Origin: Blastocatellia bacterium
GTDB lineage: Bacteria; Acidobacteriota; Blastocatellia; UBA7656
Direction: 5' to 3'
Assembly (NCBI GenBank): GCA_963765495.1
Contig: CAVXWP010000001.1
Location: 864,001-928,000 of the forward strand
DNA length: 64,000 nt
Within the stretch, counting starts at the first letter, position 1, and each line of letters opens with the position of its first letter. The notes under the pieces were generated by a model. That model did no database searches, was not told the origin of the DNA, and saw only the letters and a program-made list of their open reading frames with translations. Shown piece after piece: positions 957 to 24,037 of this stretch. Position numbers and translations under genes: made by a program.

Positions 957-1117
957 GATGGCGGTAGCATTTGATGCGTGAGACAAACAGGTCTGAGTTT
1001 TCAAATCTCAGAGGAGTGCTATCCGCTGACTGATCAGTCAGCTTCTTTTCCATTATGCTGAGTATCTGAGCCCATATGTGTTCATCTGCGGTTGTTTCCC
1101 CTCTTTTCTCCAAGACA

Positions 1118-3073
1118 CTAATCTCCTCGTCGGGTCGCAACCCCGATGCGCCGCGCAAGATCGGCAAACCTCGGGTCCGGGCGCAGGCCATCGAAAATTG
1201 GGTCTGCTCCGATATATATGATCCTGTATGAACGCTCCTCGTATGCTTTTTCAAGCCATCTTAGCGTCTCATCTCTGTTGCCAAGCCCAATATGGATCAT
1301 CGCTATCTCGTAGGCCGGCGCAGCACCGCGCTTCGACTTTGTCTGCAACTCGTCGAGAACTCTCAAAGCTTCGTCTCTGTTGCCTGACATGGCATATGCG
1401 TATCCAAGCGATGCCTTGATCGGGGAACGATCTCCAATAAGGGCAACCGATTTCTCGAAGCTGGCGATGGCTTCTTCGTGCATCCCTTTTTGCACGTAGA
1501 CAAATCCGAGCGTGAAATGTGCCGCCGCGAAGTTTCGGTTCAAATCCAGTGTCTTTTGCAACTGCTCTATCGCCTGGTCGTACTGTCGGGCGAAGTAATG
1601 TATCCTTGCTTTGTCCCTGTTGATGATGAGTGAGAGAGGGTTGAGTTTTCTGGCCTGTTCCACCTCCCGCAACGCCTCTTCGATCCGTCCCGTCACCGCC
1701 AAGCAGTCGGCATACCACTGGCGCGCAGAGGCATAATTCGGATTGATCTCGATGGCGCGCTGGAACTCGTTTTCGGCGGCTGCCATGTCGTGATCGTAAG
1801 CCATCCTGACAAGCCCCAGCGAGGCATGGGCCTCAGCGAGATGGTCGTCGAGTTCCAGCGCGCGCATCGCTGCCGATCTCGCTTTGGGCATCACCGTACT
1901 TGCGGGCAGTCGAAGCCCTCCGCCAAGCACATAGCTGTCGGCAAGGCCCGCGTAAGCCAGCGCGTAAGTCGGGTCTTTGCCGAGCGCTTTTTCGAAATAC
2001 TCAATGCCTTTGCGCAGCCCTTCCTGACTTCTCTTATTCCAGAAGTAACGGCCTTTGAGATAGAGTTCATAAGCCTCGGTGTTGTGGGTGTAGCGTTTGG
2101 TCAGAAGCCCTCTTTCTTCGCCGCTCAATTCCAGTGTCAGCGCCCGCGTCACCTGTTCGCTTATCGAATCCTGCACGGCGAATATGTCCGTAAACTGCTC
2201 GTCGAACTTCTCCGCCCATAGCGTTTTGCCGTCGGGAACGCTTATGAGTTGAACGGTCACTCGAATTCGGGCGCCCAATCTTTGGACGCGACCGTCAAGC
2301 AGCGAGTCCACGCCAAGCTCGCGACCGACCTCAAGCAGATTCTGTCGGGGATCGTCATACCCACTGACGGCGCTCGTGGGGCAGATAGACATCTCCTTTA
2401 TGCGGCTCAGACCCGTTATGAGCGCGTCGGCCATACCCAGACCCAGAGACTCATCGCTTCCGTCATCGCTCATAGGTTTGAAAGGCAGCACGGCCAGCGA
2501 TCTCGGCTTCGCGGCAGGCGCGCGCTCGTTGGATTTGTCCGCGAAGAAACGATACGAGGCCCCGGCAACAAGCAATATCAGAAGGATGCCTGCGGCGGCA
2601 GCGATTCGGCGCGGCGTCAAGATAGCTTCTGGCGTAGTCGCTCTACTCGCTAATTGCGAAGTCTGTGCGGAGCGGTCTTCTTCCTCCTCGGTGATAATAC
2701 GCGACCTCGTGAAGCTCGCTACTATTAACCCGTCATCATTATCTGTCGAAATGCTAACCGGAGCCACAAAGCGATAGCCTCGCTTCGGCACAGTCTCTAT
2801 ATACCTGCTCTGGCCGGGCGTCTCGCCAAGAGCCTTTCTCAAAGTGGAAATGTTGCGGTTGAGATTGCCTTCTTCAACGACAGTATCGCGCCAGACCAGG
2901 CGCATCATTTCGTCCTTTTCAACTACCCGGCCCCGGTTTTCGACAAGCGCCAGAAGTATATCGAACACCTTTGGAGTCAGCGGCACCGTCTCTCCACCGC
3001 GCAGCAGAACCCGTTCGGTAGCATCTAACCAGTATTCATGGAATATGTATAAATGCTTTATTTGCTTGTTCAT
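1118..3073 (-). CDS. Transmembrane transcriptional regulator: OmpR/PhoB (CadC/ToxR-like) winged helix + TM + TolB-like domain + TPR repeats
   Basis: LTPKVFDILLALVENRGRVVEKDEMMRLVW...YIETVPKRGYRF wHTH; TM AAAAGILLILLVAGA; SLAVLPF TolB-N/adenylate-cyclase-associated motif; many TPRs. Confidence 0.9.
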   Translation of the reverse strand: MNKQIKHLYIFHEYWLDATERVLLRGGETVPLTPKVFDILLALVENRGRVVEKDEMMRLVWRDTVVEEGNLNRNISTLRKALGETPGQSRYIETVPKRGYRFVAPVSISTDNDDGLIVASFTRSRIITEEEEDRSAQTSQLASRATTPEAILTPRRIAAAAGILLILLVAGASYRFFADKSNERAPAAKPRSLAVLPFKPMSDDGSDESLGLGMADALITGLSRIKEMSICPTSAVSGYDDPRQNLLEVGRELGVDSLLDGRVQRLGARIRVTVQLISVPDGKTLWAEKFDEQFTDIFAVQDSISEQVTRALTLELSGEERGLLTKRYTHNTEAYELYLKGRYFWNKRSQEGLRKGIEYFEKALGKDPTYALAYAGLADSYVLGGGLRLPASTVMPKARSAAMRALELDDHLAEAHASLGLVRMAYDHDMAAAENEFQRAIEINPNYASARQWYADCLAVTGRIEEALREVEQARKLNPLSLIINRDKARIHYFARQYDQAIEQLQKTLDLNRNFAAAHFTLGFVYVQKGMHEEAIASFEKSVALIGDRSPIKASLGYAYAMSGNRDEALRVLDELQTKSKRGAAPAYEIAMIHIGLGNRDETLRWLEKAYEERSYRIIYIGADPIFDGLRPDPRFADLARRIGVATRRGD

Positions 3074-3080
3074 AATGGCC

Positions 3081-3124
3081 TTCGGAACTTTTTCGGGGAA
3101 ATTTCGGAAGTATTTCCAGAGTTC
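3081..3124. promoter_or_regulatory. Four 11-bp-periodic direct repeats, candidate wHTH operator
   Basis: ttcggaacttt / ttcggggaaat / ttcggaagtat / ttccagagttc at 3081, 3092, 3103, 3114, immediately upstream of the wHTH gene start. Confidence 0.6.
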
Positions 3125-3307
3125 TGCAAAGACTTAAGGCCGCATTCGAGTTATTGTCTGCCGAGTGATCAGAATTCGACGGAAGCCGATCTATCGTACC
3201 TATTGTAATAAAAGGGGACAGTGAAGGCAACGCCTGTCGGTAGTCGATGTTCAGTCGTCAGAAAGCAATCATCTCGGGGCGATTTGCTTTCTACACTTGG
3301 AGTCGGT

Positions 3308-3562
3308 GTGAAGAAAAAGCGCAAAACAGAGATCACTATAGAAACAGCGCGAGTCCTGGTAATAAAAAAATCAGGGAAATCCGTTTCGGCCTGGTGCCCG
3401 CAATGCTTGCAGCGTGTCGCAATGATCACGCCCGAACAGGCTATGGTAGTTGCGGGCGTCAACTGGCGCACGATATACCGCTGGGCTGAGGCCGGTAGTA
3501 TACACTCTACCGAAACCCCCGAAGGCTTTCTGCTCATCTGCCTCGATTCGCTCTCCCCATAA
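3308..3562 (+). CDS. Small HTH protein (excisionase/MerR-like) with CxxC motif
   Basis: GTG at 3308 after ggag; WCPQC then ITPEQAMVVAGVNWRTIYRWAEAGSIH HTH pattern; C-terminal LICLDSL. Confidence 0.7.
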   Translation: MKKKRKTEITIETARVLVIKKSGKSVSAWCPQCLQRVAMITPEQAMVVAGVNWRTIYRWAEAGSIHSTETPEGFLLICLDSLSP

Positions 3563-3611
3563 TTTAAGAGGTTCGCATAATTTAAGAGGTTCGCATAATT
3601 TAAGAGGTTCG
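3558..3611 (+). repeat. Perfect 18-bp tandem repeat x3 (cataatttaagaggttcg)
   Basis: Units at 3558, 3576, 3594; first contains the HTH stop codon, last supplies aagagg RBS before ATG 3613. Confidence 0.95.
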
Positions 3612-3612
3612 A

Positions 3613-6600
3613 ATGAAAAGCAGATTTTCACTTCCAACAATCATTCGATTACCATTGATGATCAAGCGTCGAATTTGCCGGGCTCGATTCCAATTTATCC
3701 TCGCCTTCCGGCCCTGCTCGACCGGGGCCGCCTTCGCGTTGATTGCAGTTCTGCTTATAGGAGCGGCAACCGCGATAGCCGATTTGAAAAGCGCCGAACA
3801 GGCTCAAAGCGCTTCGCCCGATCTCAATCACTCCTATCTCGGCAAACTTGAGCCGGGTACAAGCATCAAGCGTGAGATCGCAGGTGGTAAGACACACTCA
3901 TATCGCGTCACGCTCGCATCAGATCAGTTTTTACGAGCCGTCATCCATCAACGTGATATTGATGTCAGTGTCAGACTGATCGGGCCGGATGGGATTCAGA
4001 TCACAGAGGCGAGAAACATCCTTGACACGGCGCGACCGGAGCGGATTTCTTTCGTGGCGGATAAATACGGCGATTACAGCCTGGAGGTGGTCGCAATAGG
4101 TAATGAAGAGGATGTGGGCAATTATGAAATGCGCGTCGAAGAGTTGCGAATCGCCACACCAGAAGACCGTAGTCTCACCGCCGCCGAGAAACTCTATCGG
4201 GAAGCAGAGCGGCTGCATGCGCAACCGAATCCGCGGTCGCGGCGCGAAGCCATAAAGAAATACGAACAGGCGCTACCGCTATGGCAGCAAGCCCGTGATC
4301 TGCGTGGGGAGGCCGACACGCTTCAGTATCTTTCGAACGCTTACTACTTGCTTGGTGAATCGGAAAAGGCGGTTGAATACCTCACCCGGGCACGTCCGCT
4401 CTATCGAGCCGCCGGGGACAGCCACGGAGAATCGCTGACCCTACAGGGGCTTGGTTTGATGAATCACCTGTCGGGTAACCTGCACAGGGCGCTCGAATAC
4501 TATAAGCAGGGGCTGGAGCTGCATAGAGAGCTCAGGGACAGATGGGAAGAAGCCGGGACGCTCAACAACATAGGCGGAGTTTATTCCTATATGGGAGAGC
4601 ACCAGAAGGCGCTCGAATACTATAAACTCTCGCTTCCCTTGCACCGGGATTTAAAGGATCAAAGGGGCGAGGCCGTCACGCTCAACAACATCGGCGAGGT
4701 TTATCGCATCCTGGGCGATAACCAGAGGGCGCTCTCATATTACGAGAAATCCTTGCCGCTCCGGCGGCGAGTGAAAGACCTTCGCGGGGAAGCTGTCACG
4801 CTCAATAATATAGGTCTGGTATACATGGCGATGGGCGAGTATCGCAAAGCCCTTGAGCGAATGGATGAATCATTGAAGCTTAAGCGCGAGGTGGGATACC
4901 GCTTCGGAGAAGCCTCCACGCTCAATGGTATTGGGGCCATCTATCATAAGCTGAACGACTACGAAAAGGCGCTTGAGATTCTCAACCAGGCGCTCGAATT
5001 GAGGCGGGCCGTGGGAGATCGCAGGGGAGAAGCCAATACTCTCTACACCCTCGGCTCGGTCTATTTCTCGATGGGCAAACCGGCCAGGGCAATGGAGTAT
5101 TTCAACCGGGCGCTGCCGTTGAGCAGGTCCGTCTGGGACCGCATCCTGGAGATGGCGATTCTTTACAGCATTGCCGACATCGAGCGCGAGCGGGACAACC
5201 TCCTTGAGGCCCGCTCGCGGGCCGATGAGGCGCTGGCAATCATCGAGTCATTGCGTTCGAATGTGGCGGGCCAGGAATTGCGCGAGTCCTTCTTTGCGTC
5301 AAAACAGAATCATTATGAGCTATACGTTGACGTGCTGATGCAACTTCACCATCAGAGCGGGTCCGACCGATATGACGTGAAAGCCTTCGAGGCAAGCGAA
5401 CGCGCCCGTGCTCGTTCTTTGCTGGATACGTTGAGCGAAGTTTGCGCCGGCATCCGTCAGGGGGTTGACCCTGCGCTATTTGAACGCGAGCGGAGATTAC
5501 AGCAACAACTAAATGGCAAAGAGGCGCTTCGAATGCAATTGCTCAGGCGCAAGAACGCCGAAAAGAAGATCGAGGCGATGGAGCGCGCGATCAACGACCT
5601 GCTCAATCAATATAGAGAAATCCGAACGCGAATACGAATAGAGAGCCCGCGCTACGCGGCGCTTTCCGACCCGCAGCCGCTCAACCTCGAAGAAGTCCAG
5701 CGTCTCGTTCTCGATGATGAAAGCCTCCTGCTTGAATACTGGCTTGGAGAGAAAAGGAGCTATCTGTGGGCTGTTACTACCTCTTCGATTACAGGCTACA
5801 CTCTGCCTGCGCGCGCTGAAATAGAATCTGCGACGCGGCGCGTTTACGAATTGCTTACGGCCCGCAACGAGCGCCCGAAGGGTGAAACCCCCAGACAGAG
5901 ACAATCGCGCGTAGCGAGAGCGGATGGTGAGTACATGGCAGCAGCCCGCCGCTTGAGCCGTATGCTGCTTGGGCCGGTTGCTGCTCGGCTCGGCAACAGA
6001 CGGCTGCTGATCGTAGGCGACGGCGCATTGCATTACTTACCTTTCGGGGCACTGCCTTTGCCACAGGTTCGGGAGGCGGCTGCCGTTGATAAACTTAAAG
6101 GCGGCAGAAAAGATGCGACCGGTTTATATAAGCCGCTGGTAATTGAACACGAAATAGTGACCCTCCCATCGGCTTCGGTGCTGGCAGTTCTCAGACGAGA
6201 AATAAACGGACGCAAGCCTGCTCCAAAGCTTGTGGCCGTGCTGGCCGATCCGGTATTCAGGAGCAACGATCCTCGCATAAATATCAAACCAGTAGAATCG
6301 GTGGACGATCCAATCAAGCGGAGCCGGACCACTACAGGATTGCAGGTTTCAAATTCGGAATCTGTTCGTCCGATCAACGAATCGGAGAAAAACAGCTTCA
6401 GACGGCTCCGCTTCAGCCGCCAGGAAGCCAATGCAATTATAGCCCTCGTCCCGGCAGAAAAGAGCCTCAAAGCGATTGACTTCGCCGCCAGTCACGCGAT
6501 GGCCATGGGAACTCAACTGGAAAAGTATCGCATTCTCCACTTCGCCACACACGGATTGCTCGATAGTCGTCACCCGGAGCTATCAGGGATCGTGCTCTCG

Positions 6601-6975
6601 CTCGTAGATGAACAGGGCCGTCCGCAGGATGGTTTCTTGAGATTACATGAAATCTACAACCTCAAGCTCAATGCCGACCTCGTTGTGTTGAGCGCGTGTC
6701 AGACGGCTCTGGGCAAAGAGATAAAAGGAGAGGGCCTTGTCGGGCTTACCCGAGGTTTCATGTACGCGGGAGCGCCTCGGGTGGTGGCGAGTCTCTGGAG
6801 CGTAGAAGACCGAGCTACGGCAGAACTGATGAAGCGATTTTATGAGGCGATGTTGAGCAAGGGCATGACGGGGGGGGCGGCGCTCAGGGCGGCGCAGGTG
6901 GAGTTGTGGAAAGAACGCCGGTGGCAATCGCCTTATTACTGGGCCGGATTCGTGCTTCAGGGAGAATGGAAATAA
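3613..6975 (+). CDS. Exported TPR-CHAT domain protein (caspase-like clan CD peptidase) with N-terminal PPC-like domain
   Basis: Hydrophobic N-terminal segment AAFALIAVLLIGAATAIA; PPC-like GKTHSYRV...LIGPDG; ~40-aa TPRs (GEAxTLNNIG); CHAT dyad LHFATHG and VVLSACQT; C-terminal SPYYWAGFVLQGEW. Confidence 0.93.
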   Translation: MKSRFSLPTIIRLPLMIKRRICRARFQFILAFRPCSTGAAFALIAVLLIGAATAIADLKSAEQAQSASPDLNHSYLGKLEPGTSIKREIAGGKTHSYRVTLASDQFLRAVIHQRDIDVSVRLIGPDGIQITEARNILDTARPERISFVADKYGDYSLEVVAIGNEEDVGNYEMRVEELRIATPEDRSLTAAEKLYREAERLHAQPNPRSRREAIKKYEQALPLWQQARDLRGEADTLQYLSNAYYLLGESEKAVEYLTRARPLYRAAGDSHGESLTLQGLGLMNHLSGNLHRALEYYKQGLELHRELRDRWEEAGTLNNIGGVYSYMGEHQKALEYYKLSLPLHRDLKDQRGEAVTLNNIGEVYRILGDNQRALSYYEKSLPLRRRVKDLRGEAVTLNNIGLVYMAMGEYRKALERMDESLKLKREVGYRFGEASTLNGIGAIYHKLNDYEKALEILNQALELRRAVGDRRGEANTLYTLGSVYFSMGKPARAMEYFNRALPLSRSVWDRILEMAILYSIADIERERDNLLEARSRADEALAIIESLRSNVAGQELRESFFASKQNHYELYVDVLMQLHHQSGSDRYDVKAFEASERARARSLLDTLSEVCAGIRQGVDPALFERERRLQQQLNGKEALRMQLLRRKNAEKKIEAMERAINDLLNQYREIRTRIRIESPRYAALSDPQPLNLEEVQRLVLDDESLLLEYWLGEKRSYLWAVTTSSITGYTLPARAEIESATRRVYELLTARNERPKGETPRQRQSRVARADGEYMAAARRLSRMLLGPVAARLGNRRLLIVGDGALHYLPFGALPLPQVREAAAVDKLKGGRKDATGLYKPLVIEHEIVTLPSASVLAVLRREINGRKPAPKLVAVLADPVFRSNDPRINIKPVESVDDPIKRSRTTTGLQVSNSESVRPINESEKNSFRRLRFSRQEANAIIALVPAEKSLKAIDFAASHAMAMGTQLEKYRILHFATHGLLDSRHPELSGIVLSLVDEQGRPQDGFLRLHEIYNLKLNADLVVLSACQTALGKEIKGEGLVGLTRGFMYAGAPRVVASLWSVEDRATAELMKRFYEAMLSKGMTGGAALRAAQVELWKERRWQSPYYWAGFVLQGEWK

Positions 6976-7042
6976 AGATCGGCGCGCGGTGGCCGATGGT
7001 TAAGCATATCGTAGAGTTAAATTGATCTCTTGCCGATTCCGT

Positions 7043-7072
7043 ATTTGAGATCTCAGATCTCAAATCTCAGAT
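7043..7072. repeat. Heptamer short tandem repeat (atctca(a/g)/tttgaga)
   Basis: atttgagatctcagatctcaaatctcagat; same family at 14591, 17255, 55424. Confidence 0.7.
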
Positions 7073-7124
7073 GAGCGAAAGTGAAATATATCAATCTCTG
7101 ACCACCGACCGCCGATCACTGCTT

Positions 7125-7150
7125 TGAAATGTTTTCGCAAATTTTGACAG
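7125..7150 (+). promoter_or_regulatory. Candidate ECF promoter P1 (TGAAAT-N15-GACAG) upstream of the sigma gene
   Basis: tgaaat gttttcgcaaatttt gacag; one of four same-spacing copies. Confidence 0.7.
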
Positions 7151-7219
7151 CTACGGGTGAGGCGGTACGGGAAGACTGCGCGCGGCCAGGGCGCGTTGTG
7201 TTAATGGAGTATTGGAGAC

Positions 7220-7804
7220 GTGAGTAAGGCTGTGCTGCAAGAAAAAAAATGGGTCTTAACGCAACGCGCGTTCGACAAGTTTCTCGCCTGCCTAGACTCG
7301 GATCGGGAGCGAGCGGGACGGCAGTACGAGATGATCCGCTCTAAACTCATAAGCTTTTTCGAATGGCGCAACTCGCCGTTTCCCGAAGATCACGCCGATG
7401 AAGCAATCAACAGAGTCGTCAGAAAGATTGATGAAGGAGTTCAATTGCGCGATCCTTCCACTTACGTCTTTGGCATCGCCCGTATGCTACTTCTTGAGAT
7501 CGCAAAAGAGCAGCACAAGAAATGGGCAGCAACCGATCATCTGGCCAGGTCTGTCCCTCCTCTTGAACTTGCGGATGGATCCGAATCGAAAGTTGAGTGC
7601 TTGAGACGTTGCCTCGCGGAGTTGCCCACAGAGAGCCGCGAGTTGATCACACAGTATTATCAGGGAGAGAGACGGGAGAAGATAATAAACAGAAGACGTT
7701 TGACCGAAAGACTTGCAATACCCATCAATGCGTTGAGGATCAAGGCTTGCAGGATAAGGGAAAAGCTCGCAGGTTGCCTCGATCATTGTATGGAAAAGCG
7801 TTGA
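7220..7804 (+). CDS. ECF-type sigma-70 factor
   Basis: 194 aa; region-2-like PEDHADEAINRV...YVFGIARMLL; region-4-like CLRRCLAELPTESRELITQYY...LAIPINALRIKACRIREKL. Confidence 0.85.
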   Translation: MSKAVLQEKKWVLTQRAFDKFLACLDSDRERAGRQYEMIRSKLISFFEWRNSPFPEDHADEAINRVVRKIDEGVQLRDPSTYVFGIARMLLLEIAKEQHKKWAATDHLARSVPPLELADGSESKVECLRRCLAELPTESRELITQYYQGERREKIINRRRLTERLAIPINALRIKACRIREKLAGCLDHCMEKR

Positions 7805-7832
7805 GCAGGGTAAGGGACGAAAGGCCGAAGAG

Positions 7833-7858
7833 TGAAACGGATTTGAGATTCCTGTCAG
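7833..7858 (+). promoter_or_regulatory. Candidate ECF promoter P2 (TGAAAC-N15-GTCAG) upstream of the anti-sigma gene
   Basis: tgaaac ggatttgagattcct gtcagta in the 80-bp gap. Confidence 0.65.
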
Positions 7859-7884
7859 TACCGGATAGGCGAGGGTTGAGCGAA

Positions 7885-8916
7885 ATGGACCGACAAACGG
7901 ATGAAAAACTGATAGCCCGATTTCTGCTGGGAAATTTGGCAGAGCAGGATCGCGTTGCTCTCGAAGAGCGATTCTTTGCCGATGACGATTTCTACTCGCA
8001 AATGCTCGCTATCCAGGAAGAGTTAGCCGACGATTATGTGTGCGGCGATCTTTCTGAAAGCGAGCGCGAGCAGTTTGAGCGGCGTTTCTTAACATCTCCT
8101 TACAGGCGAAGGAGAGTAGAATTCGCTGCGACCCTGGCAAAGGCGCTCCCAGAAATGCGTGATGAACAGGCGAAATCTGCTACGAGCGCGTGGGACGTTT
8201 CCTGGTGGCGCGCCCCGCTTGGATTCCTGCGAACGCAAAGCCCGGCTTTCACTCTGGCCATTTATGCGGCGATATTCTTGTTGTTGTTCGGGATTACGTG
8301 GCTTGAGATTGAGAACCGGCGGTTGGACGCGCAGCTTGAACGAGCGCGTGACGAGCAAGGCCGGTTTTCAAAGCAGGCTCAGGCGGATCGTGAAGAGTTC
8401 GAGCGAGAAGAGAAAAAGCGCCGTCAGCAGATGATTGAGCTGCAATCTCAAAGAGACGAAAAGGATGCGAAGCTTCGAGACGAACGGCGCAGGGTTGAGG
8501 AGATTGAGCGAAGAGCGGCAAGTGAACATCGTCGAAATGAGCTCCGTCCGTCGGACAACCTCGTCTCGTTCGCGCTTCTTCCAGGACTTGTAAGGGGAAG
8601 CGGCAATGAACCCGCAGATGAGCCTGAGAAGATCGTTATTCCACCAAAGACAAACTCTATCAGGCTGCAACTCGAACTCGATAAGGAAGAGAATTATCGG
8701 AGTTATCGCACCGAACTGCGAACAGCGGGCGGCAATCTTGTATGGAGCCAGACTCTACTGGCTCCTAAACAGAGCGGCGGCTCGCAGGTTGTGCCTGTAA
8801 CTCTTCCGGCCAGTATTCTCTCTCAGGGCGAATATGAAGTGACGCTTGCGGGAGTAAACCGGGATGGCGCCCGCGAAGTCATAAGCTATTATTACTTTAT
8901 CGCGCTGAAGAGGTAG
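7885..8916 (+). CDS. Putative membrane anti-sigma factor (degenerate ASD N-terminus, TM, coiled coil, C-terminal beta-sandwich)
   Basis: ATG 7885 after gaggg; LIARFLLGNLAEQDRVALEERFF...DYVCGDLSESEREQFERRF anti-sigma-like N-terminus; TM FTLAIYAAIFLLLFGITWL; directly downstream of the ECF gene. Confidence 0.75.
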   Translation: MDRQTDEKLIARFLLGNLAEQDRVALEERFFADDDFYSQMLAIQEELADDYVCGDLSESEREQFERRFLTSPYRRRRVEFAATLAKALPEMRDEQAKSATSAWDVSWWRAPLGFLRTQSPAFTLAIYAAIFLLLFGITWLEIENRRLDAQLERARDEQGRFSKQAQADREEFEREEKKRRQQMIELQSQRDEKDAKLRDERRRVEEIERRAASEHRRNELRPSDNLVSFALLPGLVRGSGNEPADEPEKIVIPPKTNSIRLQLELDKEENYRSYRTELRTAGGNLVWSQTLLAPKQSGGSQVVPVTLPASILSQGEYEVTLAGVNRDGAREVISYYYFIALKR

Positions 8917-8921
8917 TTTTC

Positions 8922-8998
8922 CAACGAAAAAGAGAGAGGGCGCAAAGAGATGACGCAGATGATTCGTCATCCTTTTGCGCCCTCTCTCTTTTTCGTTG
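8922..8998. terminator. 34-bp inverted repeat, likely intrinsic terminator
   Basis: caacgaaaaagagagagggcgcaaagagatgacg / cgtcatccttttgcgccctctctctttttcgttg, 2 imperfect positions, 9-nt loop, right after the anti-sigma stop. Confidence 0.8.
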
Positions 8999-9060
8999 AA
9001 CCCTGCGCCTGTCCGCAGAAGCCCGCCTTTGACCGCAGCCGGAAATCGAGAAAGTTATTG

Positions 9061-9086
9061 TGAAATGTTTTTATGATCATCGCCAG
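9061..9086 (+). promoter_or_regulatory. Candidate ECF promoter P3 (TGAAAT-N15-GCCAG)
   Basis: tgaaat gtttttatgatcatc gccagta, upstream of the 9241 unit. Confidence 0.7.
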
Positions 9087-9240
9087 TAGAGGTGAAAGAA
9101 GGATTTGAAGCAGGTTGGCTTAGATAAGAGTCCCGCTCGAAGCCGGGCTTCTTATCCAGGTCGGGGGATAGAGTTATTGACTCCTTGCCTGATCAAGCCA
9201 AAACGAGGCGCAAAATGATTTCAGATTAAGGGGAAAAATC

Positions 9241-9450
9241 ATGAAGAGCGTTTTCAGATCAAGACGCATTTCAAGGACTCTCGCGGCGTTTCTATTCGTT
9301 TCTGCGCTCTCTCTTTTTGGAGTGACCGCGCCTGTGGCATCAGCTCAGAGCTTCCCCGATCTTACCTTTTCTGCTGCCGGGCAGAATTGCAGCAAGTTCC
9401 GAAATCAACCCATCGCCCTTATAAGCACAAGGGCGTGCCGGATCGAATGA
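9241..9450 (+). CDS. Small secreted peptide or truncated CARDB-type gene
   Basis: aagggg RBS; clear signal peptide ending ASA-Q; mature QSFPDLTF...C...C, 34 aa. Confidence 0.55.
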   Translation: MKSVFRSRRISRTLAAFLFVSALSLFGVTAPVASAQSFPDLTFSAAGQNCSKFRNQPIALISTRACRIE

Positions 9451-9463
9451 GACGAGGAGGGTT

Positions 9464-10246
9464 ATGAAAAGTGCGCTCAAGACAATTGCGATAAGAACTT
9501 TGCCGACCGCTCTTGTGACGCTCGGTCTCGCAATACAAATCTGCGCCAACACAAGGACTATTGAATCCCGTTTCGCGTTGTCGGCCGATATCCGAAGCGA
9601 ATTCAGCACACGGTTTAATGCCCTCAGCCCCGGGAGGATCCTGATGGAAGGCACATGGACTGCCGCAGGTCCCGGCTCCGTTTCTGTTGCCTTGAAACTT
9701 ATGCTGATTCGACCCGACGGGACCGAAGCGGCCCGCAAGCAGGGTCCGGCTCCGCTCAGGCTCGAATATCGTGTATCTGAACAGGAGATAGATTCCTTTA
9801 TCGCCAGAGGCCGGACCTTTTGGACCATCAAGGTCATAAACAGCGCCGATGCGAACAGGCGAGAGGTGGGGGGCAAACTGAGAGTGACGGTTCCCACATT
9901 GAGCCGCAAAGTCTTAGACACGCAATTCACACTGCTCGGGTCGAGCAACGCTCAGGAAATACCTTTCCTTGTCCCCGCGCCCGGAAAGATAGTTGTAGGA
10001 GCCGAATGGGCAGGCGATCCGCTATCGGCCTCCGAACAGCAAGGAGTGTCAATAACGGTCAGTTTGATCCATCCCGGCCAGGCGAGGACTTACGCGCGGA
10101 GGCAGGGCACAAGTCCTCTCAGGATAGAGCATCAGGTGACGGATCGCGAACTCGATAAGGGGACCCGTTGGATTGTCAGGGTCCAGAACGATAATCAGGT
10201 GAAGATAAAAGGCAGGGTCAAGGTTACATACACGCCAAGCCTTTAA
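9464..10246 (+). CDS. Secreted protein with two tandem PPC/jelly-roll-like domains
   Basis: gaggaggg RBS; signal peptide; internal repeat PG(R/K)I..W...LI(R/H)P...AR(K/R)QG..PLR(L/I)E..V...E(I/L)D...W...V.N. Confidence 0.8.
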   Translation: MKSALKTIAIRTLPTALVTLGLAIQICANTRTIESRFALSADIRSEFSTRFNALSPGRILMEGTWTAAGPGSVSVALKLMLIRPDGTEAARKQGPAPLRLEYRVSEQEIDSFIARGRTFWTIKVINSADANRREVGGKLRVTVPTLSRKVLDTQFTLLGSSNAQEIPFLVPAPGKIVVGAEWAGDPLSASEQQGVSITVSLIHPGQARTYARRQGTSPLRIEHQVTDRELDKGTRWIVRVQNDNQVKIKGRVKVTYTPSL

Positions 10247-10309
10247 GGTGAAACCGCTCCGCCGCTTTTTTACCGGCGGGTAGATTTTGATCAAAGAAAG
10301 GAGAACGCA

Positions 10310-11128
10310 ATGAAACGCATTATGATCTGCATGCCGGTATTGCTTGCTGTATTCCTGCTGAATGCAGCCTACTCGATCCCGTGTACTGCCGCACTCGCTG
10401 AATCAAGGATGTCGGCCTTTCAGCTCTCATCGGGGGGGTCATCGGGTTCATGCCCGGATCTGCCCGCGCAGGTTGTTCAACTCGATGTTGCTCCCGCTTT
10501 GCTTGCGTCCAAGTACAGCATAAAGACCGCCTGGAGCGCGAACGCGCCTCAGTGCTTCACTATAAGGCGGTTCATAGTAAAAGCGAATATAACATTCGCA
10601 AACGGCCAGACAAAAAGCATACAAAAGTCGCTCTCCCCTTCTCAGACAAGCTTTCAGGGAGATGTGCCCGGCGCGGGCTCGCTGCCCAGGTTTGCCGATG
10701 TCACCATCACGGCGATAGCGACCGCCCCCGCATCGGGGATCGTGGCTTCCCCGTCAGGCATAGGACTTTCCGGAAATTGCCCGAGCATACCTGTGCATAT
10801 CACGCAGACCCTCTTCAACGGTCTTCAGCCTATTCCCAACCGCCCCGGCGATTATTATCCCAAGGTCAAAGTGGTCTGGAATGTAAACGGGTTGCTTCCG
10901 TGCATTGCGGTCAAGGAGTTCAAATTGACCGTCAGAGTAGGGGCTGATGGAAAAGAGCATCAAAGGACGGTGACTCTTCCCAGCAATCAACTCTCGGCAG
11001 ATGTGGTCATAACATCTGTGGCGGTAGGCTCAGGTTTTACGCCCCAACAGGTCAAATCACAGATCCAGGCTTCGGGCACGGCCCGCATAGAAGGAACCGC
11101 CCTGAAGAAAATACGGATCAACCGATGA
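10310..11128 (+). CDS. Secreted beta-rich protein with two Cys-paired repeated domains
   Basis: aaggag RBS; signal peptide; repeats CPDLP...W...C-F.I..F and CPSIP...W...C-I.V..F. Confidence 0.75.
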   Translation: MKRIMICMPVLLAVFLLNAAYSIPCTAALAESRMSAFQLSSGGSSGSCPDLPAQVVQLDVAPALLASKYSIKTAWSANAPQCFTIRRFIVKANITFANGQTKSIQKSLSPSQTSFQGDVPGAGSLPRFADVTITAIATAPASGIVASPSGIGLSGNCPSIPVHITQTLFNGLQPIPNRPGDYYPKVKVVWNVNGLLPCIAVKEFKLTVRVGADGKEHQRTVTLPSNQLSADVVITSVAVGSGFTPQQVKSQIQASGTARIEGTALKKIRINR

Positions 11129-11292
11129 TGCTCTCCCGCCGTTCGCGCGCCGATGGCAGGCGAGCATCTTACCGCAAACTCTGGATGTGACCGTTTCCCG
11201 GACTCTACCAATGTCGTTCAACAGAGTGCCGTCACAAAGACGGTCGTAGTCAGAGAAACGTTCGGACAGCCCTGTGCTGTAGGCAATTTTCG

Positions 11293-11318
11293 TGAAATGT
11301 TTTTTCATAATCTGCCAG
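11293..11318 (+). promoter_or_regulatory. Candidate ECF promoter P4 (TGAAAT-N15-GCCAG)
   Basis: tgaaat gttttttcataatct gccag, upstream of the 11424 unit. Confidence 0.7.
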
Positions 11319-11423
11319 GAAGAGTGATGTGAGAAATCAAGACATCAACGGATTAAAGAATCGCCCGCCAGGCGAGTCGCTCATCCGGGCCGAGAATTTT
11401 CCAGCAAAGAAAGGAGTAACGAG

Positions 11424-12218
11424 ATGAAGAACCAGTCTATCTTCAAGTCAGCTATAACGTTAACCGCAACAATGTTGTTTATGATTATGCTTGGAGCAAG
11501 CCAGAGCGCCAGCGCGCAATTCGGGCAGAAACCGGACTTGAGGGTCGCCAGAATTGATACGCCGGGAGGGCTCTGCGTCGGAAACAAGAGCAAGATCAGG
11601 GCTACCATAAACAACTCGCAGAACATCGGCGTCAGACAAGCCTTCAAGGTCCTGCTCAACATACAGTTTCCCAACGGCGGGCAGGGAGCTTACGAGGCGA
11701 CAATAAGCGGCATAGGACCCAACGGCAATCAAGCCGCCTGGTTCCAAAACGTCAGCCTGCCAAGCGCCGGGTATTATGCGATGAAGGTGTTTGTTGACCC
11801 GAAGAATAACATTGCCGAAACTGTCGAGAGCAACAATGACAGAGGTCAAGGTTTCAATGTGACGAAGTTCTGCGACGCGCCCACTCCTGTGCAGACATAC
11901 ACACTCACAGTGAAAGTCCACGAGAGCGGCACCTGGAGCGGGGGACAGGGGCAATGGATTCAGGGCGTAACGGTTCTTCTCGAAGACCTGGCCTCCCCGC
12001 ACCAATTCAGTTCTCGCACGGCGACGACCAATAGCCAGGGGGTGGCGACCTTTAATAACGTGCCGCCCAGCAAGCCGGGGAAAAACTTCAAGATCACGGC
12101 TTCGAAATCGAGATGCGCGCAGGTGTCCGGCAACCCCGCGCTTGCTCCCTCAATCAAACAGTTCAAAATGGGCGCATACAACTCGACGCAGCATCTGGCC
12201 CTCGACTGCGATCAGTGA
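11424..12218 (+). CDS. Secreted CARDB-domain protein with C-terminal transthyretin/carboxypeptidase-regulatory-like domain
   Basis: Signal peptide ASA-Q; PDLRV...VDPKNNIAETVESNN CARDB signature; GVTVLL...TTNSQGVATFNNVP. Confidence 0.8.
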   Translation: MKNQSIFKSAITLTATMLFMIMLGASQSASAQFGQKPDLRVARIDTPGGLCVGNKSKIRATINNSQNIGVRQAFKVLLNIQFPNGGQGAYEATISGIGPNGNQAAWFQNVSLPSAGYYAMKVFVDPKNNIAETVESNNDRGQGFNVTKFCDAPTPVQTYTLTVKVHESGTWSGGQGQWIQGVTVLLEDLASPHQFSSRTATTNSQGVATFNNVPPSKPGKNFKITASKSRCAQVSGNPALAPSIKQFKMGAYNSTQHLALDCDQ

Positions 12219-12243
12219 TCTTCACTCAAAGAGTCTCACCACG

Positions 12244-12300
12244 GTTGCGAGAATCAACCGAAAGGCAAAATCACTTCAGCACAGGGTTGGCTCTCGCAAC
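12244..12300. other. Intergenic 16-bp hairpin between the CARDB and barrel genes
   Basis: gttgcgagaatcaacc ... ggttggctctcgcaac. Confidence 0.5.
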
Positions 12301-12362
12301 TGAAACCAAAACAATGAGGCCGGACCAGGAACACCGGCTTCATAAAGGCGAGGGAAATAGAG

Positions 12363-14561
12363 ATGTTTAGAAAAACGAGATCAATCCCGCGCAGGCCGGG
12401 CACGATCCTGGCCCTCAGCCTGGCGACTTTGCTCGCCTGTGCCAACGCTGTCTTGCTTGCCCGGGCCGATTCACAGGATATTAGCGCCACAGCCAGCTTC
12501 TCAGATAAAGGATCGCTCGCTCTCGGCGAAAGGCTTTCCTTCAGCCTCAATCGCCCTCTCCAACCCGATGAGGGGGTGCTTGCAGCCCTCATCGGCTCGA
12601 CAGATATAACCGCCCTGTCGAGCGTGGATAAAAACGGTCTGAGTTATGATACGGCGATACTGCCTTTGCCTGCGGGTGAAACCGTGGCGGTCCTCTATCT
12701 GGTCACGCCAGACAACCGGTGGACAGAGATAGCCCGATTCCCTCTGCGCATCGAGCCCGACATCGCCGCAGCGCCCGTCACCCAACAGCAACCCCCCGCA
12801 GATTCCACTCAGCAGTCCGTAAATGTTCAAAAGAAATGGGGATTTGACAGAGCCAACATAACTCCATCGCTGACCATAGGGATGAAGTCACAGTTTGCAG
12901 AAAAAGCGTTCCCCGACACAAGCGCTTCCGAGCGGCCCACTTATAATGACCTCACATTGCAGGGTAGCCTTCAAACCGACATCGCTCGCGGGGCTTTTAA
13001 CTCGCAAACTCAATTCGATATCGTAGGCTCAAGCTTTCGAAAGGAAGCGATCCGTTTCGATCAACTGGGCGATGCCGCCCCTCATGTAGACCTGTCGAGT
13101 TACCTTGTACAGTTCCAGGCGGGCAAAGCCAAAGTGCAGGTAGGTCATGTGGCATTCGGCGCGAATCGCCATCTCATCAACAGCTTTTCGAGCCGTGGCA
13201 TAACGGTTACCTTTCCCGTCACTTCGCGCGCGGACTTTTCGCTCGCGGCCATGAACGGTACGAGCATAGTCGGCTGGAGCAACTTCTTCGGTCTGAATCG
13301 TCGCAAGCATCAGATCATAAGCGGCGCTTTCGGATATGAGATCATCCCAAGCCGCCCGGGCGCGCTCAGAATCGAGACCTCGATAATGCACGGGTCGGTT
13401 CTTCCCTTGAGCAACTTCAATCAGGGAGTCGTAAACGACGCGGAGCAGAGCAAGGGGGTGAGCGTGCGCGTTGTGGCAAGCGACAAGACCGAGCGTTTTC
13501 GCCTCGATGGCGGAATGGCCCGAAGCCGCTTCAATAACCCCGCCGATCCTTTGCTCCAGCAAGGACTCAATATCGTTCCGGTTCGCGAGACGGCTCGCAA
13601 CGCGCGCTACCTGGACGCAAGCTACCACATATTGCGCAATCTCCCCTTGAGTGCATCAAAGAACGTCAATCTCACCTTAAATTATCGCCACGAGAGGGTG
13701 GCTCCATTGTTTCGCAGCGTGGCGGCCTTTACGCAGGCTGATCGGTTCGACAATCAATTCGAGATCGTCAGCGGCATCGGCGAAATCATGGCTACCTTCG
13801 CTCATGGCCGGTCCAACGATAATCTCGATGACATTGCTTCGATCCTCAAGACTTTCACACGGCGCACGGGCCTCATTTTGGGCGTGCCGCTTGGCTCGCT
13901 CTTTGGCGATCAGGCGAGCCCTTCGCCCTGGCTTCCGAGAGTCTCATACAATTTTGACCGAACGCATCAGTTCGGCAAGGCACTTCCTGTAAACGGCGGC
14001 TTCGATAGCGCGAGCCAGATACCCGATCAGATCAGCACAAATCAGAGCCTTCTCGCCGAGTGGCAATTCGAGAAGTGGCGCTTCGGTTATCGCATCAATC
14101 ATTCGTTTCAAAATAACCGGCAGCCGGGAAGAGAGCTTGCCGATCTGAAAAATTTCATTCACGGTTTCACGTTCGGCGTGACGCCTGTTCCGGCTTTCGA
14201 TTTGAGTTTCGACCTCGGCAGGGAAAGCGCCGATAACAGAGAACAAAATCGCACTGATAACACTCTTCGCATAGGCTCGACAATCAACTGGCGAATGACT
14301 CAAAAAACCGCTCTTGCCGCGACCGTTTCAACCACTCTGGCCGGAGACGTTGCTGATACAAGCCGCAGTCGCAATGCCGAGCTTGACTTGCAATGGTCTT
14401 ACAGGTTCGACATGGAAAAGAGCCGGTTCAGAAAGATCAGCGGCCAGTTCTTTATCAGGTATGCGAACCGCTACGCGAGGATGCGAGACAGGTTGTTAGG
14501 ATTCAGTAACCTGACGAAGATCCAAACGCTCAATACTGGAATCAGTTTTACCTTTTTCTAA
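12363..14561 (+). CDS. Putative outer-membrane beta-barrel protein with N-terminal periplasmic Ig-like domain
   Basis: Signal peptide; Q/P linker; many alternating amphipathic strands; C-terminal LNTGISFTFF BAM-type Phe signal. Confidence 0.75.
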   Translation: MFRKTRSIPRRPGTILALSLATLLACANAVLLARADSQDISATASFSDKGSLALGERLSFSLNRPLQPDEGVLAALIGSTDITALSSVDKNGLSYDTAILPLPAGETVAVLYLVTPDNRWTEIARFPLRIEPDIAAAPVTQQQPPADSTQQSVNVQKKWGFDRANITPSLTIGMKSQFAEKAFPDTSASERPTYNDLTLQGSLQTDIARGAFNSQTQFDIVGSSFRKEAIRFDQLGDAAPHVDLSSYLVQFQAGKAKVQVGHVAFGANRHLINSFSSRGITVTFPVTSRADFSLAAMNGTSIVGWSNFFGLNRRKHQIISGAFGYEIIPSRPGALRIETSIMHGSVLPLSNFNQGVVNDAEQSKGVSVRVVASDKTERFRLDGGMARSRFNNPADPLLQQGLNIVPVRETARNARYLDASYHILRNLPLSASKNVNLTLNYRHERVAPLFRSVAAFTQADRFDNQFEIVSGIGEIMATFAHGRSNDNLDDIASILKTFTRRTGLILGVPLGSLFGDQASPSPWLPRVSYNFDRTHQFGKALPVNGGFDSASQIPDQISTNQSLLAEWQFEKWRFGYRINHSFQNNRQPGRELADLKNFIHGFTFGVTPVPAFDLSFDLGRESADNREQNRTDNTLRIGSTINWRMTQKTALAATVSTTLAGDVADTSRSRNAELDLQWSYRFDMEKSRFRKISGQFFIRYANRYARMRDRLLGFSNLTKIQTLNTGISFTFF

Positions 14562-14661
14562 GCGCCTCATTCTAAGCGCCCCTGATTTTCGATTTGAGAT
14601 TTGAAATCTGGATTCGGGGGTTAGAGATGAGCGAATCAAGACACGCAGCGAGGTTAAGATT

Positions 14662-15918
14662 ATGAAGCGACTGCTACTCATCCCCGCACTTCTCTCTCTT
14701 TTATTAACAGACAGCGCGGCGCAACAACAGATCAAGGTCAACCCTTCGGGTGTCAATGTCAACGCAAGCGGCGCGACCACGGTCTTTCTTACATTCGGCA
14801 GTCTGCTCAACAAGCGACCGGCTGAAGCCACGTGGTGCGGCGAGTTGATGTCGGCTGCGCCCGACATAGGCTTCAAGTGCAACCCCGCGACCATATTCGG
14901 CCAACTCCCGTCGCGCTTCGACCAATCCCGCTTGAGCGGCTCGAATGCGTTTACCGACATAATGTCTATACCGCCTTCGGTTGCGAGGCGGGCCTATCAG
15001 GCTGCGCAGGACGGGCAGCAGTCGTCGTTCTTTTACGTCCGGCGATTCGTTAATCCTTCGGGTGGAGCCGATGAGTATGTCCCGGTTACCTGCCGCATGA
15101 CGGGCGGGGGGGCGCGCACTCCTTTTGCGCTGACCGATGTGCGGCTATCGTTCTCAATTGATAAATCCGTTCTGCTGGTAGGACCCGGCCAGAAGATGCC
15201 TGCGTTGAAAGCCGAAATAGCTTACAACGGCACGGGCCGTCTGAAGGGTCGCTGGGAAGTCGTACTGCCGGGTGAAGAACCGCCTTCCGAGCGCGACCTG
15301 CTGACAGAAGCAACGCTTCCCATCGAAGAGCGGGGATTGCAACGACGTTACACCGAGTTGAAAAGGTTCAACATCTTCTTGCCTCCGACCGGGAAGTACA
15401 CACTGCCCGGACCTGATCCGGCGCGTCTGCCAAACGAGGTCAATGGTCAGTACCTCGTGTTGTTGCGCATAGAAGCTTCGGATGATAAGGAAGCCGATTC
15501 CAGCCTCGCAAGCGTCGGGGCCGGAGCGGGTGTCGTTCATAGCGGCGCGGTAGCAGGCTTTCCACTGCCGCCCCTGCGCTACTACGTCGGAAGCGGCAGC
15601 AGCAACATTGCGGCTCAACCGGCAGGAAAGCTCGTACAACTTCTGCCCGAAGCCAATTTCATCGTCCCCTCAGGCGCGCCCGTGGATTTCAGATGGCAAG
15701 AAATAGAGCAGGGGAGCTTTTACCGAATAGAGATAAGCAACGCGCAGCAAGAGATAGTCTTGTCGGCGCTGATGCCGCCCGGCACCGGATATTATCGTGC
15801 TCCATCGTGGTTGAAGGACAAAGCCGGAGACGGAAGCTTGCGCTGGCGAATAGTTGCCTTAGATCGAGCAGGAAAGCCGATTGGCGAAACTCCCTGGCGC
15901 TTTCTGCGACTCATGTAA
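14662..15918 (+). CDS. Secreted/periplasmic multi-Ig-like protein, probable partner of the barrel
   Basis: gaggt RBS; signal peptide SAA-Q; Cys-containing N-domain; YNGTGRLKGRWEVV; FN3-like C-terminus (FRWQE...YRIEI...WRIVA). Confidence 0.75.
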   Translation: MKRLLLIPALLSLLLTDSAAQQQIKVNPSGVNVNASGATTVFLTFGSLLNKRPAEATWCGELMSAAPDIGFKCNPATIFGQLPSRFDQSRLSGSNAFTDIMSIPPSVARRAYQAAQDGQQSSFFYVRRFVNPSGGADEYVPVTCRMTGGGARTPFALTDVRLSFSIDKSVLLVGPGQKMPALKAEIAYNGTGRLKGRWEVVLPGEEPPSERDLLTEATLPIEERGLQRRYTELKRFNIFLPPTGKYTLPGPDPARLPNEVNGQYLVLLRIEASDDKEADSSLASVGAGAGVVHSGAVAGFPLPPLRYYVGSGSSNIAAQPAGKLVQLLPEANFIVPSGAPVDFRWQEIEQGSFYRIEISNAQQEIVLSALMPPGTGYYRAPSWLKDKAGDGSLRWRIVALDRAGKPIGETPWRFLRLM

Positions 15919-15991
15919 CCGCGCAGATTCAGCCACAAAAAAGCAGGAACCCAAGGTGATGAGTGACGAGTGACGAGAATCGGGATTCTTT

Positions 15992-16064
15992 GACAGGATT
16001 AACAGGATTAAAAAGATTCCCGCAAGATTGTTGGGAAAATCTTGCTAGCCCTGTTAATTCTGTC
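15992..16064. repeat. Imperfect inverted repeat of the 9-mer (g/a)acaggatt family between convergent genes
   Basis: gacaggattaacaggattaaaaagatt ... aatcttgctagccctgttaattctgtc. Confidence 0.7.
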
Positions 16065-16092
16065 TGAGTCTTTGTTGCCGATCTCACATCTG

Positions 16093-17232: not shown

Positions 17233-17254
17233 ATTCGCCCCTCCACATCTTTGG

Positions 17255-17286
17255 AAATCTCAGATTTGAGATTTGAGATTTGAGAT
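17255..17286. repeat. Heptamer tandem repeat gatttga
   Basis: aaatctcagatttgagatttgagatttgagat. Confidence 0.75.
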
Positions 17287-18293: not shown

Positions 18294-18379
18294 CTTTTCT
18301 AAATCATAACGCTGAATACTGGTAGAAATGAATTTGAATAGTTAGGAAAACAGTAATAGCCCAACCAACATGGTGCGTT

Positions 18380-19948: not shown

Positions 19949-20000
19949 CGGGCGTTACCTCTTTCTCAAGTGTCTGGTTATTAGAGAGTGATGCGATCTC

Positions 20001-23437: not shown

Positions 23438-24037
23438 ATGACAATGCTTATGGAGCAACTCGCGACAATGGAGAAACGCGAAAGCGAAGCACAAATCATC
23501 GAAGCTTGTCAGCGGGGCGACCGGGCGGCTTTTCAGCTATTGTTTGAAGCCCATAAGGACAGGGTTTATTCGATAGCTCTGCATTACGGCAATGATGAGG
23601 CGCTGGCGAAAGATGTTACCCAACAGGTCTTTTTAAAGCTCTTCACTACCATAACGCAATTTCGCCATCAGTCCGAATTCACCACCTGGCTCTATCGAAT
23701 CGTAGCAAATACTTGCGTGGACGAGCAGCGCAAGCGAAAAAGGTTCGTCCCGCTCGGCGAAGATGTAGAGGTCAGAGATATGTCAGGCAAAGATTCACAG
23801 GAAGAGGTTTTCATGAGGCGACAACTGGCCGATTCGGTCAGGGCCGCTATCGCCGATCTCTCACCGAAACTGCGGATGCCCATCCTGCTCAAGTATGTCG
23901 AGGAACTCTCTTACGATGAGATCGCCGAAGCCCTCGGCTGCTCGACCGGGACCGTAGGGTCGCGACTCAACAGGGGGCACAAGATATTGGCGCGTAAGCT
24001 CGGCCATTTGCGTGGCGCGCTTACGGCAGAGGAATGA
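23438..24037 (+). CDS. ECF sigma-70 factor (SigW/RpoE-like)
   Basis: GDRAAFQLL, AKDVTQQVFLK, FTTWLYRIVAN, LSYDEIAEALGCSTGTVGSRLNRG. Confidence 0.93.
   Translation: MTMLMEQLATMEKRESEAQIIEACQRGDRAAFQLLFEAHKDRVYSIALHYGNDEALAKDVTQQVFLKLFTTITQFRHQSEFTTWLYRIVANTCVDEQRKRKRFVPLGEDVEVRDMSGKDSQEEVFMRRQLADSVRAAIADLSPKLRMPILLKYVEELSYDEIAEALGCSTGTVGSRLNRGHKILARKLGHLRGALTAEE

Follow-up and report, generated by a model that had tools for sequence, protein, structure and literature searches.

In Myxococcus xanthus, DdvS, a sigma factor of the extracytoplasmic function (ECF) type, is tied to the membrane anti-sigma factor DdvA and to an extracytoplasmic TPR-CHAT region (PMC6061681, PMC11506125). In the sections of these reports drawn on here, DdvA is a single fused protein with a zinc (CHCC) site, DdvS has four local sigma-dependent promoters at its own locus, its promoter is given as GTAA-n16-CGT (PMC6061681), and its targets are CRISPR/CBASS. 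Here we describe a locus that, by analogy, resembles a split DdvS/DdvA module. It lies in a stretch of 64,000 nt (the window) from Blastocatellia bacterium GCA_963765495.1 (CAVXWP010000001.1:864,001-928,000, forward strand; coordinates are those of the window and genes are named by their first position), where a divergent ECF sigma factor, the 7220 protein, very probably reads four neighbouring promoters of the form TGAAAYG-N14-GNCAG. The locus also combines an ECF sigma factor, a membrane anti-sigma factor, a TPR-CHAT protein and four probable local promoters; however, its -10 element differs from that of DdvS, its protease is encoded by a separate gene, its anti-sigma factor has an immunoglobulin (Ig)-like end, and its targets are predicted exported proteins without a PADLOC match.

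Canonical ECF switches, such as RpoE-RseA of Escherichia coli, SigW-RsiW of Bacillus subtilis (ECF245), ECF116 and ECF30, are like the window system in having a sigma factor of sigma2 and sigma4 domains only, a single-pass anti-sigma factor encoded at gene position +1, a bipartite promoter and 16 nt between the -35 hexamer and the -10 tetramer. TGAAAC-type -35 elements appear in the descriptions of ECF245 and ECF116 (PMC7826278). In contrast to these switches, the 7220 system has (G)YCAG as -10 element, with A at a position that is normally T, and not CGTA, CGTC or TCAAA; sigma2 of the family is too divergent for the Sigma70_r2 model, sigma4 carries an insertion, the anti-sigma factor lacks the zinc motif, and the constant promoter of the family lies downstream of the sigma gene, not upstream. 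RpoE autoregulation is described as acting as negative feedback (PMC12633294), so the feedback logic proposed below is already known.

In the passages of the PMC7826278 supplement that were covered, ECF54 is the only group for which TPR-CHAT neighbourhood genes are mentioned; it is described there as restricted to Actinobacteria, without an anti-sigma factor and with the promoter GTATCAG / CTCC, and the window system fits none of this. By their descriptions, as far as these were covered, the Acidobacteria-containing groups ECF206, ECF226, ECF268, ECF277 and ECF278 have an anti-sigma type or a promoter unlike those of the window system. A literature search, whose coverage left subscription journals mostly outside, yielded no description of the sigma family or of its promoter consensus. 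We regard this large family of soil Acidobacteria as a new ECF group with a new consensus and a textbook mechanism, the named groups having been compared by description only; the consensus is real, probably unpublished, and accompanied by a partly readable residue code.

The sigma factor and its four candidate promoters

On the + strand, the genes of the locus follow each other in the order TPR-CHAT protease, sigma factor, single-pass membrane protein, hairpin at 8922-8998 and six predicted exported proteins. The elements on which the argument turns are:

7125..7150, + strand: predicted promoter P1, -35 TGAAAT, -10 ACAG, 5' of the sigma gene; 25.6 bits; predicted start ~7159
7220..7804, + strand: divergent ECF sigma factor of 194 aa; specificity is assigned to T81 (sigma2) and to I174 and C177 (sigma4 recognition helix)
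7833..7858, + strand: predicted promoter P2, -35 TGAAAC, -10 TCAG, between the sigma and anti-sigma genes; 23.0 bits; predicted start ~7867
7885..8916, + strand: predicted single-pass membrane anti-sigma factor, 343 aa; helical cytoplasmic domain without zinc motif
9061..9086, + strand: predicted promoter P3, -35 TGAAAT, -10 CCAG; 31.4 bits, the best of the genome; predicted start 9094/9095; first output unit 9241-9464-10310; site conserved in locus L041
11293..11318, + strand: predicted promoter P4, -35 TGAAAT, -10 CCAG; 25.6 bits; predicted start 11326/11327; second output unit 11424-12363-14662

The 7220 protein passed none of the curated sigma models, remaining below the cutoffs of TIGR02937 and TIGR02989 (E 2.9e-10 for the latter). 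In a set of 71 family members, none matched Sigma70_r2 of Pfam and 27 matched Sigma70_r4_2. We read these failures as divergence and not as a different fold. The family profile matched solved ECF sigma factors with E-values from 1e-4 to 2e-2, and a structure model of the 7220 protein (predicted local distance difference test, pLDDT, 86.5) gave ECF sigma factors as its top Foldseek rows (best E 1.4e-3). This model was superimposed on sigma2 of 5uxx with Z 7.6 over 76 residues and on sigma4 of 2h27 with Z 8.1 over 69 residues, the root mean square deviation being 2.5 in both cases; sigma4 contains a short insertion. As is usual for ECF factors, the protein is short and consists of sigma2 and sigma4 domains without sigma3. 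DdvS was not among the PDB sequence or fold matches listed for the 7220 sigma, though a relation may still hold.

A preliminary description of the window had proposed four copies of TGAAAYG-N14-GNCAG with the same spacing, and exact matches were indeed present at the four positions given above, all on the + strand, with no further match on either strand of the 64 kb. Shuffled sequence contained 0.06 matches on average, and none of 100 shuffles reached the observed four. The claimed GnnTT after the -35 hexamer was seen in all four sites, and each site is, as had been stated, intergenic, on the coding strand and 5' of 7220, 7885, 9241/9464 or 11424. The site at 7833 lies within a mechanical open frame starting at 7597, but homologs of the anti-sigma factor align only from the ATG at 7885 onward, and this codon is furnished with a ribosome-binding site.

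The motif had been derived post hoc, and on the scale of the genome the strict pattern alone was uninformative, with 15 hits as compared to 5-15 at other spacer lengths; only the cluster in the window stood out. A matrix was therefore considered that had been trained on 28 sites from other genomes only, belonging to sigma factors with I174 and T/E81 and chosen by a relaxed form of the motif together with their position or a T-tract. This external matrix ranked the four window sites first to fourth in the 7.3-Mb genome, with 31.4, 25.6, 25.6 and 23.0 bits, ahead of the next site at 20.7 bits, which answers the post-hoc concern; spacer-shifted control matrices gave 0-3 genome hits at or above 21 bits. 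When a genome-wide regulon was looked for in the 7.3 Mb, only the four local sites reached 21 bits; given this and the background frequency of the strict pattern, the predicted regulon of the 7220 sigma is confined to its own locus. The 20.7-bit site (G000 C2:81125, +) is intergenic and has the same -35 element and T-run with a CAT -10 element; it is possibly a remote target of a paralogous sigma factor.

Conservation of the promoter in the sigma family

Homologs of the sigma factor were found in 24 of 31 related genomes (18/18 of the same family), with 2-13 matches each; a sample of 121 genomes from the whole phylum yielded them in 21. Titled relatives are mostly from Blastocatellia/Pyrinomonadaceae, and a family profile search collected 2,149 clusters at 50% identity with E-values up to 1e-30. 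Removal of duplicates reduced 136 loci to 131, of which 129 offered a region that could be used. When the DNA that separates the sigma and anti-sigma genes, with its coding part removed, was subjected to Gibbs sampling without a seed, six of eight runs returned the same bipartite motif, and the site at 7833 was placed in it. The motif reached at least 8 bits in 111 of the 129 loci, the remaining 18 being dropped. Across the family, the -35 element varies between TGAAAT, TGTGAT and CGACAT and the -10 element between CAG, CAC and CAT. In the 54 loci of the TGTGAT/CAC class, 45 extra cognate sites were present versus 13.5 at other spacers, and non-cognate variants were at or below background.

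The expectation that the motif would recur at orthologous loci held for the interval between sigma and anti-sigma genes throughout the family, whereas upstream of the sigma gene it held only for the I174/T81 clade. There, 5 of 17 loci of the I174/T81 type, the window included, had a cognate site no more than 260 nt upstream of sigma, versus 0 of 161 others; a looser scan added such a site in L042, and in L004 a site precedes the CHAT gene of that locus. Sites equivalent to P1 were located 5' of the sigma gene in L001, L002, L003, L042 and L199. As far as sequence allows, the promoter between sigma and anti-sigma genes is the constant of the family and the one upstream of sigma is clade-specific; therefore, the family default seems to be a sigma factor that makes its own inhibitor, to which the I174/T81 clade adds self-activation.

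In many distant loci (e.g. L244, L270, L221 and L240), the -35 element starts exactly at the TGA stop codon of the sigma gene. Among the family members, P0132, P0136, P0140, P0154, P0157, P0166, P0170, P0217 and P0265 carry N-terminal extensions of ~140 residues without Pfam family, and P0265 in addition has a C-terminal zf-HC2 region, like a sigma/anti-sigma fusion.

Promoter architecture

Framed as TGAAAY-N16-YCAG, the motif has 16 nt between -35 hexamer and -10 tetramer, which we take to be the spacing of SigW. Of 133 weighted sites, 83% have a pyrimidine-purine step at motif positions 34/35, versus 4-27% elsewhere in positions 32-47. The preliminary description had placed the start a few nucleotides after CAG; from this initiator peak it is predicted instead at 8-9 nt after CAG, and the variable G therefore becomes -9 and the A -10. 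In RpoE numbering, as given in PMC6648896, the two bases that enter pockets sit at these same positions.

A T-run after the -35 element was present in 16 of 20 output promoters versus 13 of 111 anti-sigma promoters, and the window fits the same pattern, which suggests graded promoter strengths. In 165 loci, 68 cognate sites lay away from the anti-sigma position; 53 of them precede an open reading frame (ORF), with a hydrophobic N-terminus in 33 of the 53 products. Among the output ORFs, 29 of the 48 listed were scanned: 20 had no Pfam family, and the other nine comprised subtilases, trypsin, ankyrins, beta-propeller/HYR, hydrolase and phosphatase families.

Covariation of promoter bases with sigma residues

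Mutual information was calculated for all residue-base pairs, and the pair of sigma residue 174 with motif position 4 ranked first (z 13.7), followed by 177 with 4, 174 with 3, 42 with 4, 81 with 26 and 89 with 26. Isoleucine, valine or leucine at residue 174 goes together with AA at positions 3-4, methionine with TG and serine with AC, and T81 goes together with G at position 26. By alignment with SigW, residues 174, 177 and 81 are presumably the equivalents of Ser172, Phe175 and Thr72 of RpoE. In Table S1 of Todor et al. (PMC7776599), Ser172 is assigned to -34/-33; these are motif positions 3-4, so the -35 link agrees with that rule. T81 adjoins the equivalent of Trp73, for which PMC6648896 describes a base pocket in RpoE. 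As expected for an ECF factor, a bipartite -35/-10 promoter is found whose bases depend on canonical specificity residues.

The pairing was followed in two further data sets and at second sites. A held-out collection of 80 metagenome loci contained 76 with enough DNA and 50 once near-duplicates and sites of low score had been excluded; in 49 of these 50, positions 3-4 were as predicted from residue 174, and position 26 was G in all five loci with T81 and non-G in all 45 with other residues. When positions 3, 4 and 26 were masked and the region after the anti-sigma gene was searched in 98 loci, the window included, a strong second site was present in 20, versus 2 of 98 control windows; it had the same bases as the first site in 20/20 cases at positions 3-4 and in 18/20 at position 26. 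Among 70 further, mostly distant loci, of which 62 are non-redundant, isoleucine, valine or leucine at 174 went with A at position 4 in 18 of 19 cases.

Weighing the assignment to the 7220 sigma

Because of the conservation at homologous loci, the covariation with the correct sigma domain, the second sites that change in step and the fixed distance to the initiator, the motif is assigned to the 7220 sigma as its target, as the preliminary description had proposed, and the four sites are very probably real promoters of this sigma factor. Several points weigh against this assignment. Residue 42, not a known DNA contact, also ranks high in the covariation, a sign of clade effects. The table of Todor et al. 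(PMC7776599) ties the Thr72 position to -7 and not to the flipped base, so that the -10 link has no textbook match. One residue class makes up 45 of the 50 held-out loci. Independent contrasts on quick trees, built without the trait columns, amount to only 2-4 pairs on supported branches, which puts significance out of reach; their direction does agree with the prediction (for T81, 2.9 of 4 concordant and 0 opposite, with cross-domain controls at ~0.2-0.3). The main set also has exceptions: G is present in L001 (E81) and L047 (Q81) and absent from L121 in spite of its T81. Only 24 of the 62 non-redundant, mostly distant loci had a site above threshold, and in them T81 went with G in none of three cases (all N89) and M174 with TG in none of two. 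Since the rules fail in part in the distant paralogs, to which the T81-to-G rule did not carry over, the residue-to-base code is judged to be context-dependent. In many paralogs the TGA of the -35 element doubles as the sigma stop codon, which is not so in the window. The two paralogs in the genome have a similar -35 element, so cross-talk is possible. Finally, the support is computational: motif, conservation, covariation and folds are computed, binding is modelled, and transcription and the signs of the feedback are inferred.

This possibility of cross-talk leads to the best of the competing explanations, namely that one of the two paralogous sigma factors, encoded on contigs C6 and C2, is the main or an equal reader of these ECF promoters. 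The genome does encode three family members, all with YGAAAY-type -35 elements at their own anti-sigma promoters, but among the three T81 occurs only in the window sigma and CAG sites occur only at the window locus; the sites of the paralogs end in CAC/CAT (C6) or CAAT (C2), and all top-scoring CAG sites adjoin the 7220 gene. We consider this explanation improbable.

Still less probable is that the motif serves as operator for one of two regulators, the BldC-like helix-turn-helix (HTH) protein (3221) or the TPR protein with a winged helix (1118-3073), and that it overlaps promoters which a different sigma factor reads. Both candidates are encoded next door, and winged-helix TPR matches occur in 47 of the 129 loci; yet the small HTH protein is found in only 8 of 129, no good sigma-70-type consensus coincides with the sites on the coding strand, and the motif is asymmetric and bipartite, stands at a fixed distance from the initiator and has bases that track residues of the sigma factor itself. 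Hardly any credence is due to the idea that the four matches lack promoter function and either form a chance pattern picked out post hoc or were left behind by local duplication. Only the background frequency of the strict pattern (15 versus 5-15) speaks for it; against it, the external matrix singles out the four sites, the intergenic regions that bear them have no BLAST similarity among themselves, and the element recurs at homologous loci in variants specific to each locus.

Proposed switch

We hold with high confidence that the 7220 sigma reads P1-P4, raises its own level, drives an anti-sigma brake and controls two exported-protein operons. In the resting state, the membrane anti-sigma factor 7885 would hold both sigma domains. 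Once freed, the sigma4 helix (I174, C177) would read the TGAAAY -35 element, the end of the sigma2 loop (T81) would select the G of the CAG -10 element, and transcription would start ~9 nt after CAG. The freed sigma factor would raise its own level via P1, make extra anti-sigma factor via P2 as a presumed negative-feedback brake, and switch on, via P3 and P4, the two exported-protein operons beyond the probable terminator.

The promoter bases change with the DNA-reading residues, so the small target set of each copy becomes predictable from sequence, and through the pairing of residues with bases the ECF recognition code comes to include a -10 element that contains A. The finding supplies a reporter that is ready for use, together with a predicted regulon, for a sigma family that has expanded in Blastocatellia of soils and that standard ECF surveys probably miss, because the sigma2 model fails and the constant promoter lies behind the sigma gene, out of reach of upstream searches. 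More tentatively, and with some doubt, one may picture a large ECF family missed by sigma2 models, with an own promoter behind each gene, two to three residues that retune it, up to 13 local regulons per genome and a first cut made in trans by TPR-CHAT. If true, this would offer the cleanest test of the unproven DdvA self-cleavage model as well as a natural library of orthogonal sigma/promoter pairs.

The predicted anti-sigma factor

The model of the 7885 protein shows a helical N-terminal domain, a transmembrane (TM) segment near residue 118, a long coiled coil and an Ig-like C-terminal domain. An anti-sigma homolog follows the sigma gene in 114 of the 129 loci, and the zinc motif HxxxCxxC was found in none of 60 homologs. 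Modelling of the sigma factor together with residues 1-100 of 7885 gave a complex score of 0.76, the best control reaching 0.01; the score mark used is reached by 116 of 157 solved pairs and by 2 of 215 mismatched pairs. The runs share at least 74% of contacts, the partner has a pLDDT of at least 80, and the modelled interface covers sigma residues 80-88 and 170-187, that is, the promoter-reading surfaces. Binding of the 7885 domain to the 7220 sigma is thus supported by the model, although the passing score may mirror likeness to solved sigma/anti-sigma pairs.

The TPR-CHAT protease as candidate activator

3613..6975, + strand: TPR-CHAT protease (caspase-like) of 1120 aa, predicted to be exported; matches to CHAT (Pfam, 4.3e-70) and to TPRs; candidate activator

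In the 3613 protein, the catalytic His and Cys motifs are present and a hydrophobic stretch lies at residue 33; no cognate promoter was found upstream of its gene in the window. CHAT was matched in 93 of the 129 loci, and both catalytic motifs were matched in 42 of 50 stand-alone copies upstream and in 28 of 31 downstream. Fusion of the anti-sigma factor to TPR-CHAT was seen in 8 of 114 cases, one of them in the window genome, whereas the two are separate genes at the window locus. For DdvA, self-cleavage followed by RseP has been proposed and not validated (PMC11506125). We consider it evenly balanced whether sigma release is triggered by the TPR-CHAT protein cutting the outer part of the anti-sigma factor, with intramembrane proteolysis following. 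The known promoter lets protease-driven sigma release be tested, a step that in the account of PMC11506125 is proposed, not shown, for DdvA.

The fused anti-sigma-TM-TPR-CHAT proteins (~1,200 aa), built in the layout of DdvA, are found in Acidobacteria, for example at L025:5707-9321 (G000 C2:136906 onward), and further ones in L027, L117, L127, L128, L131, L133 and L038; the L025 fusion departs from the usual pattern in the residues behind its catalytic His motif. In the sections of PMC11506125 drawn on here, DdvA-type homologs are reported only from Myxococcota and one Comamonas.

Terminator hairpin and output genes

8922..8998, + strand: long hairpin that follows the anti-sigma gene, its 3' arm rich in U; probable terminator
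9241..9450, + strand: 69-aa ORF with signal peptide; leader and signal peptide common to a 276-aa gene in L041/L001, then diverging
9464..10246, + strand: predicted secreted protein of 260 aa without family, also present at related loci
10310..11128, + strand: predicted secreted protein, 272 aa, no family
11424..12218, + strand: predicted secreted CARDB-domain protein, 264 aa (CARDB 5.1e-10)
12363..14561, + strand: predicted exported protein of 732 aa; an outer-membrane beta-barrel is possible from a weak BBP2 match (E 0.027, below cutoff)
14662..15918, + strand: predicted secreted protein, 418 aa, of an unnamed Acidobacteriota family

The hairpin noted earlier at 8922-8998 is real by its folding energy (-56.7 kcal/mol, z -11.9) and probably acts as a terminator; a simple terminator scan missed it. 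It occurs once in the genome, and a dispersed repeat was ruled out in that no other genome copy was found. In L041 a different hairpin occupies the same place after the anti-sigma gene.

ORF 9241 encodes only 69 aa, made up of a signal peptide and ~35 residues that include two Cys; it may be what is left of a secreted 9464 paralog of ~280 aa, or else a small peptide that is exported. All six output proteins have hydrophobic N-termini; a curated family was matched only by 11424 (CARDB), and none of the six had a match in PADLOC. The two exported proteins without family at 12363-15918 travel together: a paralogous pair is located at G000 C7:764044-760567, and pairs of this type also adjoin the same sigma family in L004, L005 and L017. 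The 9464 protein bears a weak likeness to the N-terminal beta domain of the TPR-CHAT protein (residues ~73-182; hhalign probability 15%, Atlas 0.88); as a lead only, a decoy or a feedback link is possible.

Other features of the window

A divergent pair is formed by the winged-helix/TPR regulator at 1118-3073 (-) and the BldC-like HTH protein at 3221-3562 (+), and similar pairs appear to recur on contigs C2, C6, C13 and C16 of the window genome. An 18-base unit in three head-to-tail copies, the last of them partial, lies at ~3563-3612, immediately 5' of the TPR-CHAT gene. Rfam gave no match across positions 1-20000. A second ECF sigma/anti-sigma pair, conventional-looking from the translations alone, is encoded at 23438-25134, with no copy of TGAAAYG-N14-GNCAG nearby. 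Short dispersed intergenic repeats are located at ~7040-7100 and ~15960-16070, and dozens of sequences elsewhere in the genome resemble them (68 and 101 BLAST rows, respectively).

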